64,000 nt of DNA, taken from NCBI GenBank assembly GCA_041650805.1, contig JBAZKM010000003.1, forward strand, positions 156,439 through 220,438, written 5' to 3'. Source of the stretch: Candidatus Omnitrophota bacterium (lineage in GTDB: Bacteria > Omnitrophota > Gorgyraeia > 2-01-FULL-45-10). A program made the position numbers and the translations under genes. Shown here piece by piece: positions 3 to 58,527 of the stretch. Position 1 is the first letter of the stretch. The number at the start of each line of letters is the position of its first letter. The notes below the pieces were generated by a model. The model saw only the letters and a list, made by a program, of their open reading frames with translations, ran no database searches and was not told the origin of the DNA.

Positions 3-1814
3 GTCGCCGGCATGGAACCGGAAGAGGCGCTTGCGCGCTACAAGGCCGAAAAACGTATCAAAGGTTATGGTTCTACGCACTATATGAAGATGGCGGGATT
101 TTTGAAGGTCCTCCTCCTCGAACTCGCATCGATAGGCATCCCTGCCGGGCAGGTCGCAGATATTGAAGAAGATTATATGAAGATAACGGCCGGCCGGAAG
201 GATACTAAATATCTCTCCGCGACTCAGGACGAAGACAGTGCGGCGCTTATCTATACGCTTAAATTCAGATGGGCCTATCCCGGAGAAGAGGAGAAGGACC
301 GCGAAATAATATTTATAGAATGCGATATGACGCAGCCGGGCAGGTATCCAGATATTCTGAGAGAGGCAATCCGGGAAAAGTTCAATGCATACTATCAGCG
401 CGCAGGCCAGACGATGGCCGACAGCTATACCGCGTTTCTCGCGGAGGCGGCAAAAGGCATCGCCGCAGGCGGGTTTGTTGTCACTGACGACCGCGCATAT
501 CTCAGGGCTACCGAAGCGGACAATAAGGCGATAAGACGCGGTATCCTCGCTTCTCTCGGTTTCGCGGAACTTCCGCCGTCCGAAGATATGCGTAAGTGGG
601 AAGAGAGGATCCTGGCTGTCAACAGCGGCACCAGATACGGCTGGGACGTGGCGATAGAGACGGGTTCCGAATCGATCGGGAAGGTGTCTGCCTCTCCGGC
701 TGTCGGGGACAACGTCCCGATGGAAACGGAGACCGTCTCTGAAGACACTGCAGGGGCAAAAGCCGAGATTCCGAACTTCCTTTTTAGATCAGACACTACT
801 TTAGGAGATATTGAAAATTATTTTGACGCTTTAAGACAAGCGCTTTCGCAGGAAGGTCTTGATGCCGGTACGCGCAAAAAGATGTATAAGGCCGCCCAGG
901 TGGCTGTGGCGAAACTTAGGGTAGGGCTTGGATTGCTGAGAGACGGCAGGATGCTGGGGCATGAACCGTGCCTGGGTTGTGTCAATAACGGCGGTTGCGC
1001 CGTGGTGGCCGGACTTCTGGCCGGAGGTGTCCGTGGATCCGCTCCGGTTGACGACTGCGGAGCGATGAAGAAGCCGGCTATCTCGAACGATGACATCGGG
1101 TTGGCTATCATTGCGCTTGACACGTTCCTGAACGAAGTTAAGGGCGAGAACCGGCTAGAGACAAAGACGGCTCCCGACTCAAACCTCCAATCTCCAATCT
1201 CCAAGCTCCAAGCCCTCTTAGCATCTTCTCTTCAGTACGAGCGCGACAGGGCCGGCACACCCACAGACATAGTACCCGAAGGCCGTACGGTGATGCTCTC
1301 CGAAGGTCTCTTCGATATGGAGAAGAAGACAGAGCTTGTAGAGCTGATACTTAAGAATAGAGGCAGCAGTATACAGATACTCTCTGTAGATGAGCTCCGC
1401 CGCGGCGCCATAAGCGGGAGGGCCGCGAAGGATAATACCATAATAGTCCTTACAGAGGAGGAATTTAACGACCCGAAGGTCTGGAACGGCTATGCCAAGG
1501 AAGAGCGCGGTATAAATTCAAGCGTCCTGTTGCTGGATGATAATGCTAAATTTATAGGCACGAACTACCTCTACCTTGAAAGTGTCCTGAAACTATCGGT
1601 AGCTATAATGGCGGGCAACAGGGGTGCGGTCGGATCCTTCTATAAGCTCATAGCCGGAAGGCCGATAAGCGATGAGGCGCTCGCATCCCTCGGTATTGAC
1701 CCGGTCACCTTTGCCCTCAATGCGATACTGGAGTTCGATGAGATGCGGGTGAAGGATGCCGATGAGTTCGAACAGTATAAGCGCGCCATGGAGGTATTCC
1801 TGGCGGCGGCATAA
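3..1814 (+). CDS. Hypothetical protein, 5'-truncated at window edge. Its C-terminal ~200 aa is homologous to the C-terminus of the 7094-aa giant protein, so this is probably the tail of a paralogous large protein.
   Basis: Frame is open to the window start. The heptamer-encoded linker NLQSPISKLQA (nt 1184-1216) precedes a domain matching the giant's C-terminus (VLLLDDNAKFIG vs VIVLADNKFVSG; LSVAIMAG vs LAVAIALSS; similar length after the linker). Confidence 0.55.
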   Translation, partial: VAGMEPEEALARYKAEKRIKGYGSTHYMKMAGFLKVLLLELASIGIPAGQVADIEEDYMKITAGRKDTKYLSATQDEDSAALIYTLKFRWAYPGEEEKDREIIFIECDMTQPGRYPDILREAIREKFNAYYQRAGQTMADSYTAFLAEAAKGIAAGGFVVTDDRAYLRATEADNKAIRRGILASLGFAELPPSEDMRKWEERILAVNSGTRYGWDVAIETGSESIGKVSASPAVGDNVPMETETVSEDTAGAKAEIPNFLFRSDTTLGDIENYFDALRQALSQEGLDAGTRKKMYKAAQVAVAKLRVGLGLLRDGRMLGHEPCLGCVNNGGCAVVAGLLAGGVRGSAPVDDCGAMKKPAISNDDIGLAIIALDTFLNEVKGENRLETKTAPDSNLQSPISKLQALLASSLQYERDRAGTPTDIVPEGRTVMLSEGLFDMEKKTELVELILKNRGSSIQILSVDELRRGAISGRAAKDNTIIVLTEEEFNDPKVWNGYAKEERGINSSVLLLDDNAKFIGTNYLYLESVLKLSVAIMAGNRGAVGSFYKLIAGRPISDEALASLGIDPVTFALNAILEFDEMRVKDADEFEQYKRAMEVFLAAA

Positions 1815-2112
1815 TGTAGCTATCAGCCTTCAGCTTTCAGTTTTTTTAGCTTTTGCTGATAGCTGTAAGCTGACAGCTGAAAGCTTAAATTTAGCCCGGG
1901 CTAAGCTGGGATGGAGGGACCTTCCCCCGAGTTGGTGGACTCCATCCCAACCCGGGCTTTTTTTAAGCTATCAGCTATCAGTCGTCAGCTTTCAGCCTTG
2001 AAGTGAGACTCGTGAAGTTTCGTATAGATGGATCCATGGGGAGTCAACGTGCTTTTAAAAAGCACTATTGACTTTATTAGCTGACAGCTGATAGCTGATA
2101 GCTGAAAGCTAC
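1812..2112. repeat. Intergenic heptanucleotide (AGCTNTC) tandem arrays in inverted orientation, flanking an ~80-bp core that contains a palindrome (gtgcttttaaaaagcac).
   Basis: Forward arrays agctatcagccttcagctttcag (1820-1845) and agctatcagctatcagtcgtcagctttcagc (1961-1995). Reverse-complement arrays gctgatagctgtaagctgacagctgaaagct (1855-1888) and gctgacagctgatagctgatagctgaaagct (2081-2110). Confidence 0.8.
1905..1962 (+). terminator. Putative intrinsic terminator downstream of the first ORF.
   Basis: Perfect 10-bp stem tgggatggag/ctccatccca (1908-1917 and 1940-1949), followed by cccgggc and a T7 run. Confidence 0.5.
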
Positions 2113-3880: not shown

Positions 3881-3922
3881 TTAACGTTCAGCTTTCAGCC
3901 GTCAGCTATCAGCTTTCAGCAA
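3881..3922. repeat. AGCTNTC heptamer array (cinA upstream/divergent region).
   Basis: cagctttcagccgtcagctatcagctttcagc. Confidence 0.8.
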
Positions 3923-3987
3923 AAAAGTTAAAAAAAAGTGCAATAATATTTGAAATTTTAGCATCTATATAGGTAGAAGGGTAAATG

Positions 3988-4032
3988 GCGACTTAGCTAT
4001 CAGCTTTCAGCTGTCAGCTATCAGCAAAAGAA
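3988..4032. repeat. AGCTNTC heptamer array, forward orientation, on the left flank of the four-helix-bundle gene.
   Basis: tagctatcagctttcagctgtcagctatcagc. Confidence 0.8.
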
Positions 4033-4036
4033 GAAT

Positions 4037-4402
4037 ATGAAAGAGCAGAGATTTAGAAAGCTAGAAGTTTGGATCAAAGCAATGGATTTTGTTGAGATGA
4101 TTTATAAGATCACAAACAATTTTCCGCTAAGGGAGACGTATGGTCTTACAAGCCAATTGAGGCGAGCAACGCTATCTATAGCTCTGAATATTGCCGAAGG
4201 AAGCGGCTCTTCTTCCGATAGAGAATTTAGTAGATTCTTGAATATATCTTTGAGGTCATCTTATGAAGTTATGTGCGGCATCGAAGTGGTAAGGCGACTT
4301 AAGTATTGCGATGACAATGCAATAAGCATTTTATCGGACAGATGTGATGAGATATCGGCAATGTTGACCGGTTTAAAGAGAAAGCTGAAAGCTGACGGCT
4401 GA
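4037..4402 (+). CDS. Four-helix-bundle protein of the 23S rRNA intervening-sequence protein family (the family that includes DGR accessory protein Avd).
   Basis: 121 aa with the family signature ...ATLSIALNIAEGSGSSS...FLNISLRSSYEV. The C-terminus KRKLKADG is encoded by the heptamer repeat. Confidence 0.7.
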   Translation: MKEQRFRKLEVWIKAMDFVEMIYKITNNFPLRETYGLTSQLRRATLSIALNIAEGSGSSSDREFSRFLNISLRSSYEVMCGIEVVRRLKYCDDNAISILSDRCDEISAMLTGLKRKLKADG

Positions 4403-4420
4403 TAGCTGAAAGCTGAGGCC
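4383..4420. repeat. AGCTNTC heptamer array in reverse-complement orientation (right flank of the four-helix-bundle gene), forming an inverted pair with 3988-4032.
   Basis: agctgaaagctgacggctgatagctgaaagctgag. Confidence 0.8.
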
Positions 4421-4430
4421 CGAAAACGCT

Positions 4431-4459
4431 TTACAAGAAGGAGGTGACGCAGGTATAAT
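4431..4459 (+). promoter_or_regulatory. Sigma70-like promoter upstream of recA.
   Basis: TTACAA (4431-4436), a 17-nt spacer, and a perfect TATAAT (4454-4459). The AGGAG RBS lies 13 nt before the ATG at 4534. Confidence 0.5.
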
Positions 4460-6069: not shown

Positions 6070-8658
6070 ATGAAGACCGACGATATACGAAGCTTATTTC
6101 TGGAGTTTTTCCGCGCCAAGGGGCACGAGATAGTGCCGAGTGATTTGCTCGTCCCGAAAGATGACCCGACGCTCCTCTTTACCGGCGCGGGGATGAACCA
6201 GTTCAAGGAGAAGTTCCTGGGCCGGAACGTCACGTACAGGCGCGCGGCATCGAGCCAGAAATGCCTGAGGACCGGCGACCTTGAGAACGTCGGAAAGACG
6301 TCGGGCCACCACACGTTCTTTGAGATGCTCGGCAACTTTTCGTTCGGGGACTATTTCAAGAAAGAGGCGATCTCCTGGGCGTGGGAGTTCATGACTGAGG
6401 AGCTGAAGATACCGGAAGGCCGGCTCCGGGCGTCGGTATATAAAGACGACGCCGAGGCATACGCCATCTGGAGGGACGTCATAAAGATGCCGGAGCGGAA
6501 GATAATAAAGTTCGGCGAAAAGGAGAACTTCTGGCCTTCCGAGGCGCCGACGAAAGGGCCCAACGGGCCGTGCGGGCCGTGTTCCGAGATATTCTACGAC
6601 TACGGCGATGACGTGGGGTGCAAAAAGCCGGGCTGTACGCCTGCGTGCGACTGCGGGAGGTTCATAGAAGTATGGAACCTCGTATTTACCCAGTTCGACA
6701 GGCGACCGGATGGAAAGCTTGAACCGCTCCCGAACAAGAATATCGATACCGGCATGGGGTTGGAGCGCCTGGCGTCGGTGATGCAGGGAGTGAAGACGAA
6801 CTTTGAGATAGACATCTTTGTGCCGATCGTTAAAGAGATAATCAAGGGTATAGGGTTTAGGGTATCGGGTATAGAAAAAGCTAGACCCGAATCCCCATAC
6901 CCCATACCCTATACCCTATACCCTAAGTTGAACGCCATCGCCGATCACATACGTGCGGTGGCATTCATGATCGCAGACGGCGTGATGCCGTCCAATGAAG
7001 AGCGCGGTTATGTGGCGCGCAAGCTCATCAGGCGGTCGCTTAACCACGCGATGGACCTGGAGATAAAAGTGCCTTTCCTTTACAAGCTCGTGAGCACCGT
7101 TTGCGAGGTGATGAAGATGCAGTACCCGGAGCTTTTGGAGAGAAGGGATGACATAGCTCAGGTCGTGAAGCGCGAGGAGGAGAACTTCCTCGTTGTGCTT
7201 GATACGCAGATACCTAAGGTGGAAGAAGCGTTTGAGAAATTTAAAGGTCATCAGGAATTGGCGGAGACGGCGTTCAATTTTTATGATACATACGGAATGC
7301 CGTATGACATGCTTGAGGAGATCGCCGAAAAATTTAAGTTAAAAATAGACAGGGCCGTCTTTGATAAACTTTTGGACAGGCAACGGACGCTTTCTCGCTC
7401 TAAGAGCAAGATAAAGGGCGAGATATTCTCCGAGACCTTCGCGAAGAAGGTGGAGTCGCTCGGTCTCAGGACAGAGTTTCTCGGTTATGAGAAGGCGAAG
7501 CTTGATGCGAAGGTCGCGGCGGTCCTCGAGGGCGGGGAAGTGATACTCGAGAGGACACCGTTCTACGGAGAATCGGGCGGACAGGCGGGTGACTGGGGCA
7601 CGATCGAGACGCCGTCCGGAAAGATGGAAGTGAAAGACGCGAAGAAGATAGGCGATACGATCGTCCATATAGGCATTATGGTCAAAGGAAGGATCGTCAA
7701 GGGCGAGACGGCCAGGGTCGCCATAGATGAAGAGGTGCGCCGCAGGGTGATGCGTAACCATACGGCGACCCATCTACTGCAGGCGGCCCTCCGCAGGGTG
7801 CTCGGTGAACATGTCCACCAGACGGGTTCCCTGGTGGATGCCGAACACCTGAGGTTCGATTTCACCCACATGAAGAAGATGGAGCCCCGCGAGATCGCCC
7901 GTGTCGAGGAGATAGTGAATGAGGCGATAAAGAAGGGCGTGGCTGTCGCAAAGGATATAAAAGATATAGATGATGCCAAGCAGAGCGGCGCCATAGCGCT
8001 CTTCGGCGAGAAGTACGGATCGAAGGTCCGCGTGATCTCGGTCGGGGACATATCCAGGGAGTTCTGCGGCGGGACACACGTCGATAACACAAAGGATATA
8101 GAGCTCTTCAGGATCACCGGCGAGAGCTCGATCGCATCCGGGGTCCGGCGTATCGAGGCGGTAACTGCGGACGCGGCCAGGAAATGGGCGGCGGACGAGA
8201 TCGAGGCCAGGGACGCAAAGCTCAAAGACGAGAAGCGCAAGGAAAAGGAGAAGACGGCAAAGGCCTCGCTCCTCAAGTCGGAATTGGAGAAGGTCGACTC
8301 ATATATAGCTAAAGGCATAGATGCGGGCGGCACCAGGGTCATAGCGGAGATAGTCCCGGGCGGCGTTATGGATATACTGCGCGCGCTGAGCGACGCCATA
8401 AAGTCGAAGGAGAGGTCCGCTGTCATAGTCCTGGCGTCTAAAGATAACGATAAAGTGTCGTTCGTGGTCTCGCTCACAAAGGACATCTTAGGCAGGAAGA
8501 CCCTTACGGCCAATGATATAGCGAAAGATATGGCGAAGTACTTAAGCGGCTCCGGCGGCGGAAGGCCGGATTTCGCTCAGGGCGGCGGAAAAGATCCGTC
8601 GAAACTTGACGAGGCGTTACGGAAAACGTTTGAACTGGTCAAAGAGAGGCTAAGATGA
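6070..8658 (+). CDS. alaS: Alanine--tRNA ligase.
   Basis: 862 aa with class II AlaRS core motifs, editing-domain HxxxH (HTATHLL), and C-terminal DHHA1-like GGGRPDFAQGGG. Carries a palindromic in-frame repeat insertion at 6841-6927. Confidence 0.95.
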   Translation: MKTDDIRSLFLEFFRAKGHEIVPSDLLVPKDDPTLLFTGAGMNQFKEKFLGRNVTYRRAASSQKCLRTGDLENVGKTSGHHTFFEMLGNFSFGDYFKKEAISWAWEFMTEELKIPEGRLRASVYKDDAEAYAIWRDVIKMPERKIIKFGEKENFWPSEAPTKGPNGPCGPCSEIFYDYGDDVGCKKPGCTPACDCGRFIEVWNLVFTQFDRRPDGKLEPLPNKNIDTGMGLERLASVMQGVKTNFEIDIFVPIVKEIIKGIGFRVSGIEKARPESPYPIPYTLYPKLNAIADHIRAVAFMIADGVMPSNEERGYVARKLIRRSLNHAMDLEIKVPFLYKLVSTVCEVMKMQYPELLERRDDIAQVVKREEENFLVVLDTQIPKVEEAFEKFKGHQELAETAFNFYDTYGMPYDMLEEIAEKFKLKIDRAVFDKLLDRQRTLSRSKSKIKGEIFSETFAKKVESLGLRTEFLGYEKAKLDAKVAAVLEGGEVILERTPFYGESGGQAGDWGTIETPSGKMEVKDAKKIGDTIVHIGIMVKGRIVKGETARVAIDEEVRRRVMRNHTATHLLQAALRRVLGEHVHQTGSLVDAEHLRFDFTHMKKMEPREIARVEEIVNEAIKKGVAVAKDIKDIDDAKQSGAIALFGEKYGSKVRVISVGDISREFCGGTHVDNTKDIELFRITGESSIASGVRRIEAVTADAARKWAADEIEARDAKLKDEKRKEKEKTAKASLLKSELEKVDSYIAKGIDAGGTRVIAEIVPGGVMDILRALSDAIKSKERSAVIVLASKDNDKVSFVVSLTKDILGRKTLTANDIAKDMAKYLSGSGGGRPDFAQGGGKDPSKLDEALRKTFELVKERLR
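6841..6927. repeat. Palindromic CCCTATA/GGGTATA heptamer-array insertion inside the alaS coding sequence.
   Basis: gggtatagggtttagggtatcgggtatag + 18-nt spacer + ccccataccccataccctataccctataccc; encodes KGIGFRVSGIEKARPESPYPIPYTLYP. Confidence 0.85.
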
Positions 8659-10503: not shown

Positions 10504-11157
10504 ATGATAGCTATAATCGACTACGGGATGGGTAACCTGAGGAGCGTCCAGAAGGCGTTCGAGGTCACGGGCGCCGGGGCGAAGATCACCTCAAGGGCGG
10601 CCGACCTGGCGAAGGCGGAAAAGGTCGTATTCCCGGGCGTCGGCTCTTTTGGAGAGGCGATGGCGGAACTGAGGAGGCGTAAGCTCGTAGACCCGATAAA
10701 GGGTGCCATCGCAGAGGGCAAGCCGTTCCTCGGCCTCTGCCTCGGGCTTCAACTGCTTTTTGAACGGAGCGAGGAAGCGCCCGGCGTTAAGGGGCTGGGA
10801 GTGCTTAGCGGCAGGGTGAAACGTTTTAAGCCCGCAGTCCACAGCCCACGGCCCAATGCTCAAACGTTGAAAGTCCCGCATATGGGCTGGAATAGTATCA
10901 GCTTTCAGCTTTCAGCTTTCAGCTTTCAGCAAAATATCCTGAAAGGCATAGACAGAGGTTCGTACGTATACTTCGTCCATTCATATTACGTCGATCCGGA
11001 GGATAAGAGTGTGACGCTTACGACGACGGATTATGGTATCCGGTTCGTGTCGGGTATTTCGAAGGATAATCTATTCGGTCTTCAATTCCACCCGGAGAAG
11101 AGCCAGGATACAGGGTTGAAGATAGTGAAGAATTTTGTGAGGATAAAATGCAGATAA
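10504..11157 (+). CDS. hisH: Imidazole glycerol phosphate synthase, glutaminase subunit.
   Basis: GATase-1 with catalytic LGLCLGLQ and PHMGWN...FVHSY. Has an in-frame AGCTTTC heptamer array at 10896-10932. Confidence 0.93.
   Translation: MIAIIDYGMGNLRSVQKAFEVTGAGAKITSRAADLAKAEKVVFPGVGSFGEAMAELRRRKLVDPIKGAIAEGKPFLGLCLGLQLLFERSEEAPGVKGLGVLSGRVKRFKPAVHSPRPNAQTLKVPHMGWNSISFQLSAFSFQQNILKGIDRGSYVYFVHSYYVDPEDKSVTLTTTDYGIRFVSGISKDNLFGLQFHPEKSQDTGLKIVKNFVRIKCR
10896..10932. repeat. AGCTTTC x5 heptamer array inside the hisH coding sequence.
   Basis: tcagctttcagctttcagctttcagctttcagc, encoding SFQLSAFSFQQ between the GWN and FVHSY motifs. Confidence 0.85.
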
Positions 11158-58427: not shown

Positions 58428-58434
58428 CTAAATA

Positions 58435-58510
58435 GTCACCAAGTCACCAGGTCACAAAGTCACCAGTGAAAGCTTTTACGGGTGACGTGGTGACCTGGTG
58501 TCCTGGTGAC
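58435..58510. repeat. ~75-bp imperfect palindromic intergenic element built from GTCACCA heptamers (copy 1).
   Basis: gtcaccaagtcaccaggtcacaaagtcaccagtgaaagcttttacgggtgacgtggtgacctggtgtcctggtgac. It shares the 31-nt core caaagtcaccagtgaaagcttttacgggtgac with 60639-60708. Confidence 0.85.
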
Positions 58511-58527
58511 CAAATAAGCTATATACT

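Follow-up and report, generated by a model that had tools for sequence, protein, structure and literature searches.

The S23p-type four-helix-bundle proteins, encoded within intervening sequences (IVSs) of 23S rRNA, have had solved structures since 2006 and are present in genomes in thousands of copies; to our knowledge, no function has been assigned to them so far. The present study concerns a relative of these proteins encoded outside rRNA, in a cassette of approximately 420 nt found in a 64,000-nt stretch of DNA (hereafter the window; contig JBAZKM010000003.1, positions 156,439 to 220,438 of the forward strand, assembly GCA_041650805.1) from a Candidatus Omnitrophota bacterium. The cassette is located between the genes cinA and recA and consists of a gene of the family PF05635 bracketed by two inverted arrays of the heptamer AGCTNTC.

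The IVS of Coxiella burnetii is an insertion of 428 nt in helix 45 of the 23S rRNA, closed by a 28-bp terminal stem; three to four GACAGAT heptamers precede the ATG of its S23p gene, RNase III cuts at the first heptamer, and both the origin of this IVS and the role of S23p are stated as unknown (PMC4990558). How IVSs arise and move is unsettled in general (PMC4990558). The S23p protein of Xanthomonas (XCC0516; PDB entry 2GSC) has been described as a homopentameric toroid (PMC4990558), and a motif (G)xxRxxxSxxxNxxE has been described for S23p-type four-helix bundles (PMC3936711). Open reading frames (ORFs) of PF05635 have also been found in rRNA insertions of the candidate phyla radiation (CPR; 10.1101/2024.02.27.582315) and between cas genes (PMC3936711). 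As far as heptamers are concerned, dispersed copies of TAACTGA occur near start codons in Beggiatoaceae (PMC4679880), and contiguous heptamers have been reported from Nostoc PCC 7120, their binding partner being explicitly unidentified (10.1101/2022.06.06.494920); neither paper connects its repeats with PF05635 genes, and neither contains the terms 'four helix' or 'S23'. A statement that PF05635 genes in general carry arms made of heptamer arrays was not found in the open literature searched.

Comparison of the cinA–recA spacer with related loci

The entire inserted cassette, from its first to its last heptamer, covers positions 3995–4416 (+) of the window and is delimited by alignment with the loci of the five nearest relatives (L081 and L083–L086; RecA 80–86% identical), which belong to a comparison set of 80 metagenomic loci with the closest RecA proteins. 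In four of the five (L081, L083, L084 and L086; RecA 81–86%), thpR and cinA adjoin recA, the remaining locus, L085, showing only the end of thpR. All five keep both conserved blocks of the spacer and are cassette-free, the approximately 420 nt between the blocks being unique to the window. As read from these alignments, the segment 3995–4416 represents an insertion when set against the nearest relatives, and no PF05635 gene lies within 3.5 kb of recA in any of the 80 closest RecA loci, so that the original prediction, i.e. a unit dropped between cinA and recA, holds. When compared with the empty sites of L083 and L086, the junctions exhibit at most an ambiguous AG as a target-site duplication; because AG is present at both of them, the cassette ends are uncertain by 2 nt.

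The conserved upstream block TTGCAA...TATATAGG (3928–3976, +), common to the five relatives, has the cassette just downstream of it. It is possible, judging from its position, that this block is the source of the cassette transcription; as a canonical sigma-70 promoter it was rejected because its spacings are wrong. Directly downstream of the cassette, the promoter scan located the recA promoter TTTACA-18-TATAAT (4430–4459, +), a near-consensus sigma-70 sequence conserved in the relatives as CTTTACA-N18-TATAAT.

Homologues of the cassette protein that are 60–75% identical to it are encoded at unrelated sites, i.e. SPOR/miaA, rpsP/trmD, panC/panD, selA/selB, rluB/aspS, DUF72/nadC and the genes E and F of a type II secretion system (T2SS-E/T2SS-F). 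Taken together with the absence from the orthologous spacer, this means that the gene does not occupy a conserved position in relatives.

Sequence and structure of the cassette

The gene occupies positions 4037–4402 (+), exactly as predicted originally, and codes for a protein of 121 amino acid residues that was assigned to the S23p/XCC0516 subfamily of PF05635/TIGR02436 based on profile matches, the alignment of homologues and a structural model. The match to PF05635 (23S_rRNA_IVP in Pfam) had an E-value of 9e-35 (119.5 bits, cut-off 33.8) and that to TIGR02436 ('four helix bundle protein' in NCBIfam) an E-value of 1e-33 (115.6 bits, cut-off 24), the nearest solved relative by sequence being XCC0516 (2GSC; E 9e-21). 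The AlphaFold2 model, with a predicted local distance difference test score of 95, consists of four long helices and can be superimposed on 2GSC with a template modelling (TM) score of 0.92–0.95 at 39% identity, on BT_0352 (2RLD) with a TM score of ~0.8, and on the Avd structures 4DWL and 8UBE with TM scores of 0.74–0.86 at 7–8% identity. The membership in the IVS/S23p four-helix-bundle family thus holds, the fold being the feature in common with Avd. XCC0516 and BT_0352, each represented by five chains in its entry, have the same fold and the motif xxxRxxxSxxxNxxE, no flanking repeat having been described there. In the window protein, the motif is found in helix 2 as QLRRATLSIALNIAE, with Q instead of G in the first position; its residues S47, N51 and E54 are invariant across 49 homologues, and so is W12. 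Conservation of the frame begins at the first ATG (M1), and therefore the 106-aa database version, P0001, begins too late. The C-terminal KKLKA(D/E)S is kept in homologues whose arms carry the same unit. In profile searches, the 121-aa protein matched only PF05635 and bAvd, with no match to transposase families; PADLOC gave zero matches, and the scan of viral contigs yielded a single distant relative (32%), so that no phage vehicle is evident.

Concerning the arms, the 5' one (3995–4025, +) is built of AGCTATC, AGCTTTC, AGCTGTC, AGCTATC and AGC, i.e. 4.4 units, or 5 units if read as TCAGCTN over positions 3993–4027, and stops 11 nt ahead of the ATG. The spacer between them, AAAAGAAGAAT (4026–4036, +), contains a weak purine-rich Shine-Dalgarno-like stretch. 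The 3' arm (4380–4416, −), identified by the pattern search, contains 5.3 reverse-complement AGCTNTC units and, as had been proposed for the right array, encodes the last seven codons (with KLKADG at the C-terminus) together with the TGA stop at 4400–4402. Both flanking arrays are therefore real, although the limits given for them originally, 3988–4032 and 4383–4420, were a few bases generous. The pattern of two and a half AGCTNTC units has 23 matches in the window versus 0.01 expected from shuffles. RNA folding predicts a stem (+) of ~34 bp with single-base internal loops, in which positions 3987–4025 pair with 4382–4420 and the whole ORF is left in the loop; the minimum free energy of the region 3985–4425 is −140.7 kcal/mol (z = −5.07), with 0 of 100 shuffles folding as well. 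In this respect the arms behave like the terminal inverted repeats they had been taken for. The 5' arm was also considered as a supplier of stop codons in all frames, an idea rejected since the AGCTNTC arm is open in the three sense frames and TAG is present in only 17 of 40 non-AGCT units.

Heptamer arms across the protein family

The family comparison covered 88 relatives from Omnitrophota, CPR, Nitrospirota, Bacteroidota and cultured Nostoc/Anabaena. Stems were scored in a mismatch-tolerant way, with a threshold of at least 12, in 83 cassettes coming from 80 genome loci and the window. This score was reached in 36 of the 83 cassettes (43%) versus 0.3% of control positions of the same geometry within the same loci, the scored stems having a median of 27 bp, with none above 37 bp. 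The bracket of heptamer arrays is the normal build of the PF05635 gene family and not a peculiarity of the window gene.

Records that carry the label Omnitrophota, Daviesbacteria or Gottesmanbacteria contain the unit AGCTNTC itself, at 53–73% protein identity. The Nitrospirota cassettes use CAGACGA or AGAACAA, and the units of other lineages are TAGTAGA, AGTTGTT, AGTCCAC, TAGTCTT and GTTCGGT. The two arms of a cassette match each other, their rotation distance being 1.93 versus 3.23 after shuffling among cassettes, and the observed value being reached by 0 of 5000 shuffles; even two paralogues within one locus have differing units, each matched in its own arms. The gene and the arms thus travel together across phyla, each gene lineage with its own heptamer in both arms.

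The arms of the relatives comprise roughly 4–5 units, five being the mode in the AGCTNTC family. With regard to the unit, 17 of 28 AGCTNTC arrays consist of five units and eight of four, positions 1, 2, 3 and 6 being near-invariant and position 5 nearly random (1.71 bits). The dinucleotide AG is present on the sense strand of the 5'-arm consensus unit in 52 of 56 cassettes, whereas CT is found in 20 of them and no other dinucleotide in more than 31; if only the non-AGCT units are considered, 33 contain AG only and two CT only (p = 4e-8, uncorrected for relatedness). Based on this bias, the arms have a fixed inside–outside polarity and a shared core.

Two cassettes of the same build are carried by cyanobacterial plasmids, pNPUN02 of Nostoc punctiforme (NPUN_RS35280; locus L178) and plasmid C of Trichormus variabilis (AVA_RS28115; L179), where five TCAGGAG/TCAGAAT units run up to the ATG and the stop codon is inside the inverted arm; in N. 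punctiforme, the ATG of the downstream gene directly abuts that arm. A stop codon inside the 3' arm is common to the AGCTNTC subfamily and these two examples. Of the 75 cassettes for which both flanking genes were resolved, 54 share the direction of both, the median distance being ~50 nt from the upstream stop and ~46 nt from the downstream start; in L001, L002 and L008, the downstream start codon is in the 3' arm or at most ~6 nt from it, and no Shine-Dalgarno sequence is visible. A probe search for universal rRNA motifs found them in 0 of the 80 related loci.

It should also be mentioned that other layouts were seen. In L177 (plasmid pCC7120gamma of Nostoc PCC 7120), the cassette is placed between insertion sequence elements and its downstream repeats are apparently direct, not inverted, while in L046, L048 and L053 a separate hairpin comes after a direct array; the cassette build therefore occurs in variants. 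The unit CAGGAGT was observed also as a gene-less array in a Nitrospirae locus (L010:171–210).

Other heptamer arrays

Between positions 1178 and 62252, the window contains about 30 arrays of at least six heptamer/octamer families, all of 3–5.3 units; the families other than AGCTNTC, at least five in number, include AGGGTAT, CTCCAAN, GGTCCAC, AGCCCAC and GTCACCA/GGTCACCA. Most of the arrays are inside ORFs in a stop-free orientation and several are exactly at gene ends (1818, 19985, 58433 and 62222); apart from the cassette gene, they bracket no whole gene of the window. All AGCTNTC arrays of the window are within 6.7 kb of the cassette (P ~5e-6).

The AGCTNTC arrays outside the cassette take several forms. 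A solo array without a partner is positioned upstream of the cinA promoter (3887–3920, +), with none detected at the corresponding position in L081 or L084. A gene-less hairpin with no strand assigned spans positions 1818–1889 (forward array 1818–1844, reverse array 1855–1889; fold −33.7 kcal/mol). Around the last ~25 codons of thpR, the pattern search and orthologue comparison revealed an inverted pair, likewise with no strand assigned (1966–2110; arrays 1966–1996 and 2078–2110), of which the inner array replaces ten thpR codons (FQLSAISCQL) with the length unchanged and the other one, inverted, supplies the last codons and the stop. The thpR genes of relatives have partial unit matches, CAGTTATC and CAGCTCAT, at the array edges, and the array suggests a patch-wise conversion, possibly seeded by short homology, rather than a simple insertion. 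The array inside cinA (2659–2692, +; the gene itself being on the minus strand) is absent from five orthologues and adds 11 in-frame residues, KKLKAESRKLK, to CinA, a would-be TGA being changed to AGA. Five perfect units are present at 10895–10932 (+), inside the ORF 10504–11157.

Related structures were observed in other loci. In L092 (RecA 74%), a solo reverse AGCTNTC array without the gene is located just upstream of recA (L092:3361–3389); either it is a remnant 3' arm or the spacer attracts arrays. In L161, a gene-less hairpin similar to that at 1818–1889 is found 800 bp from a cassette; the loop of the hairpin L161:9164–9216, TTAGAAGAATTAA, shares AGAAGAAT with the pre-ATG spacer of the window cassette, and this hairpin may be a deletion derivative of a cassette, or the likeness may be a coincidence.

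Among the remaining arrays of the window, an inverted AGGGTAT pair is present inside alaS (6845–6927), in a variable loop (...RPESPYPIPYTLYP...). The same loop of the L083 alaS, read at the protein level only, contains LSAISAF...GSFQPSA, i.e. the peptide type encoded by AGCTNTC arrays, and in other relatives the loop is short; within this essential gene, the loop seems to be a hot spot of array hairpins. A further gene-less hairpin is located at 58433–58511. The giant ORF 29171–50455 (+), encoding 7,094 amino acid residues, carries nine heptamer/octamer arrays and has matches to kinase, Fic, methyltransferase, GNAT, HD and mTERF-like families, Radical_SAM being just below the cut-off. The ORF 12–1814 (+), encoding 600 amino acid residues, has no Pfam match and contains a CTCCAAT array, and an AGCTNTC hairpin begins 3 nt after its stop.

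Interpretation and alternative explanations

Based on the above results, the segment 3995–4416 is probably a free-standing S23p-type IVS-like cassette, composed of a PF05635 gene and inverted AGCTNTC arms of about five units, which entered the cinA–recA spacer as one unit. It is read as a free-standing member of the IVS kind because it shows every testable IVS feature except residence in rRNA. With the 23S rRNA IVSs of Coxiella, Leptospira, Brucella and Xanthomonas it has in common the protein family and the terminal inverted repeats that form a stem of ~28–34 bp around the ORF; with that of Coxiella, in addition, the total size of ~420–440 nt and the tandem heptamers with a CAG core (GACAGAT) directly before an ATG weakly preceded by a Shine-Dalgarno sequence, the AGAAGA ahead of the Coxiella S23p ORF (PMC4990558) being comparable to the spacer 4026–4036. 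Unlike those IVSs, which reside in rRNA helix 25 or 45, the window cassette is found in an intergenic spacer and its relatives in protein-coding operons. In agreement with the original prediction, there is no rRNA in the window, nor any Rfam family at the gathering threshold, and at E <= 1 only sub-threshold hairpin look-alikes were obtained. The rRNA IVSs may thus represent just one landing site among several for cassettes of this kind.

As to how such a cassette might function, it would be transcribed from host signals, here maybe from the conserved upstream block. In the transcript, the arms would pair as the interrupted stem of ~34 bp, isolating the ORF, and this stem, by analogy with the 23S rRNA IVSs, would be a substrate of RNase III, a tolerance that would permit the element to reside in transcribed DNA. 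On translating the ORF as far as the 3' arm, ribosomes would melt the stem and could continue to the next gene. The ring protein, in turn, would recognise its own five-unit arrays, with one protomer per heptamer, which would serve self-regulation and/or the copying of the cassette and arrays to new sites. We infer such binding because 2GSC is a homopentamer, five is the modal number of units, the AG core is combined with lineage-specific positions and the protein is the sole product of the cassette.

Several observations weigh against this interpretation. At least five other, gene-less array families have no cognate four-helix-bundle gene within 64 kb and many of their arrays are inside ORFs, and therefore arrays do occur without the gene. 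Short or degenerate arms are seen in those Bacteroidota members that are more distant, and the phylogenetic non-independence of the loci inflates the family statistics. The mismatches in the 36 stems show no preference for G-U (29) versus A-C (28), and therefore selection on a sense-strand RNA helix is not demonstrated; moreover, ~14% of the stem positions are unpaired, many of them A-A. Repeated binding sites would explain this pattern no less well, and it is equally possible that the matched arms serve as sites of protein binding or reflect a feature of the DNA, the binding of the protein to the arrays and the link between five units and the pentamer being inferences from numbers only. Concerning expression and mobility, the promoter scan did not predict a strong sigma-70 promoter for the cassette gene, and the window shows no RNase III site, recombinase or reverse transcriptase. 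Identical proteins in different contexts were not found, P0097 (15 contigs) and P0055 (12 contigs) being always at one site, and judging from these records there is no sign of current hopping; with no mobility enzyme encoded and identical proteins confined to one site, movement must be rare.

The gene could also be an ordinary resident one, the arrays around it being genome-wide heptamers, comparable to the short tandemly repeated repetitive (STRR) sequences of cyanobacteria, that settle at gene boundaries and do not form a unit with it. Such heptamers resemble the repeats studied here in that a few 7-nt units are positioned by start codons and occasionally inside ORFs, and they are known to be genome-wide near start codons in Beggiatoaceae and Nostoc (PMC4679880; 10.1101/2022.06.06.494920); likewise, several of the ~30 window arrays are exactly at gene ends, and relatives without the gene nearby carry arrays, such as that upstream of recA in L092. 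The repeats considered here are, however, a matched inverted pair around a PF05635 gene, jointly absent with it from the orthologous spacer, and the bracket is far more frequent among the relatives than at the within-locus control positions. Since, in addition, the arms match each other and not those of neighbouring paralogues, the unit tracks the protein subfamily across phyla, and the cassette gene is the only whole gene of the window to be bracketed, a resident gene is a distinctly unlikely explanation. An even poorer one, in our opinion very improbable, is a host regulatory device for recA made of a structured leader and a small protein. The position between the conserved upstream block and the recA promoter would suit it, but the nearest relatives keep the recA control region without the cassette, homologous cassettes are found beside unrelated genes, and recA retains its own complete promoter downstream. 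The least credible alternative is an orphan Avd protein of a diversity-generating retroelement (DGR) with its reverse transcriptase and template elsewhere, as proposed originally. Avd is also a pentamer, and its four-helix-bundle fold is shared with the window protein, as described above; weak sequence matches exist, too (bAvd in Pfam, E 6e-4; PHROG 'Avd protein of DGR', E 4e-6). The scores are, however, below the cut-offs (NF033474, 18.9 versus 80; PF22296, i.e. bAvd, 20.8 versus 40), and the identity to Avd (4DWL) is 7% in comparison with 39% to 2GSC. According to the title of PDB entry 8UBE, Avd is a component of the DGR ribonucleoprotein reverse transcriptase, whereas the cassette has neither a reverse transcriptase nor template and variable repeats: in a crude six-frame motif test over the 64 kb, no ORF of at least 200 aa had both Y/F-x-DD and [ILV]GxxxSQ, in line with the original remark that no reverse transcriptase is nearby, and no stop-to-stop segment of at least 250 aa in the window contained Y/F-x-DD. 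The relatives adjoin housekeeping genes (T2SS E/F, DUF72/nadC, rpsP/trmD) and not reverse transcriptases. The cassette is not part of a DGR.

Another explanation, which we hold to be unlikely though less so than those just discussed, regards the cassette as the master copy of a protein-plus-repeat system like RAYT/REPIN, in which the ring drives or maintains the spread of arrays, including that into coding sequence, the processing of RNA being secondary. RAYT genes (REP-associated tyrosine transposases) code for HUH/Y1 transposases and are flanked by repetitive extragenic palindromic (REP) sequences or their hairpin-forming pairs (REPINs). The cassette is similar in that a short repeat flanks a single gene on both sides in inverted orientation and is found dispersed, without the gene, as hairpin pairs; it differs in having tandem heptamers and not REP palindromes, and its protein has no catalytic motif of a known recombinase, nuclease or polymerase. 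The clustering of AGCTNTC arrays around the cassette, the gene-less hairpins near cassettes and the arrays that, in comparison with orthologues, have entered or replaced coding sequence all speak for such a system, as do the modal length of five units alongside the homopentamer of 2GSC, and the AG core of fixed polarity with its other positions being lineage-specific. An analogy, and only an analogy, is provided by TRAP, the trp RNA-binding attenuation protein, whose ring binds (G/U)AG repeats in the trp leader: there, too, a ring oligomer is combined with short motifs that have an AG core, recur at even intervals and lie shortly before a start codon, and the number of repeats would equal that of subunits, although the fold is unrelated (a beta-sandwich 11-mer) and the pairing of the S23p ring with arrays is predicted. 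It also fits that a binding partner of the Nostoc heptamers is still being sought (10.1101/2022.06.06.494920), whereas the five other array families of the window without such a gene within 64 kb do not. The designation as MITE-like, i.e. as a miniature inverted-repeat transposable element, fits poorly. Correia/ERIC-type MITEs (ERIC, enterobacterial repetitive intergenic consensus), the transcript hairpins of which are cut by RNase III, have terminal inverted repeats, insert in transcribed intergenic DNA and form a stem in mRNA, and the gene-less hairpins at 1818–1889 and 58433–58511 resemble them; they are, however, non-coding, multicopy and accompanied by target-site duplications, whereas the cassette codes for a protein, its gene has no second copy in the 64-kb window, any target-site duplication is at most the ambiguous AG, and identical proteins are found at one site in many samples.

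A further reading, rather doubtful in our view, is that the S23p/PF05635 rings recognise heptamer arrays as their sequence-specific partners, with a protomer per 7-nt unit contacting the AG core together with the lineage-specific positions. The bracketed gene would then be the autonomous copy of a protein-plus-repeat system, the gene-less arrays would spread and overwrite coding sequence, and 23S rRNA IVSs would be one of the landing sites.

Conclusions

The window cassette is in itself one member of a very large family; what is new is the architecture of gene and heptamer arms that crosses phyla, and the link it suggests. The analysis joins two problems, that of the S23p/IVS proteins with no assigned function and that of the dispersed heptamers with no known binding partner, and the rRNA IVSs look like a special case of a cassette with matched, polar heptamer arms of roughly five units. 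For genome annotation, it is to be taken into account that cassettes are present inside operons and that housekeeping proteins, such as CinA and AlaRS, contain peptide insertions encoded by heptamer arrays. The partnership between ring and array, if true, would name the heptamer-binding factor sought in Nostoc, and since cultured, genetically tractable Nostoc and Anabaena carry textbook cassettes, direct experimental access to it is available.

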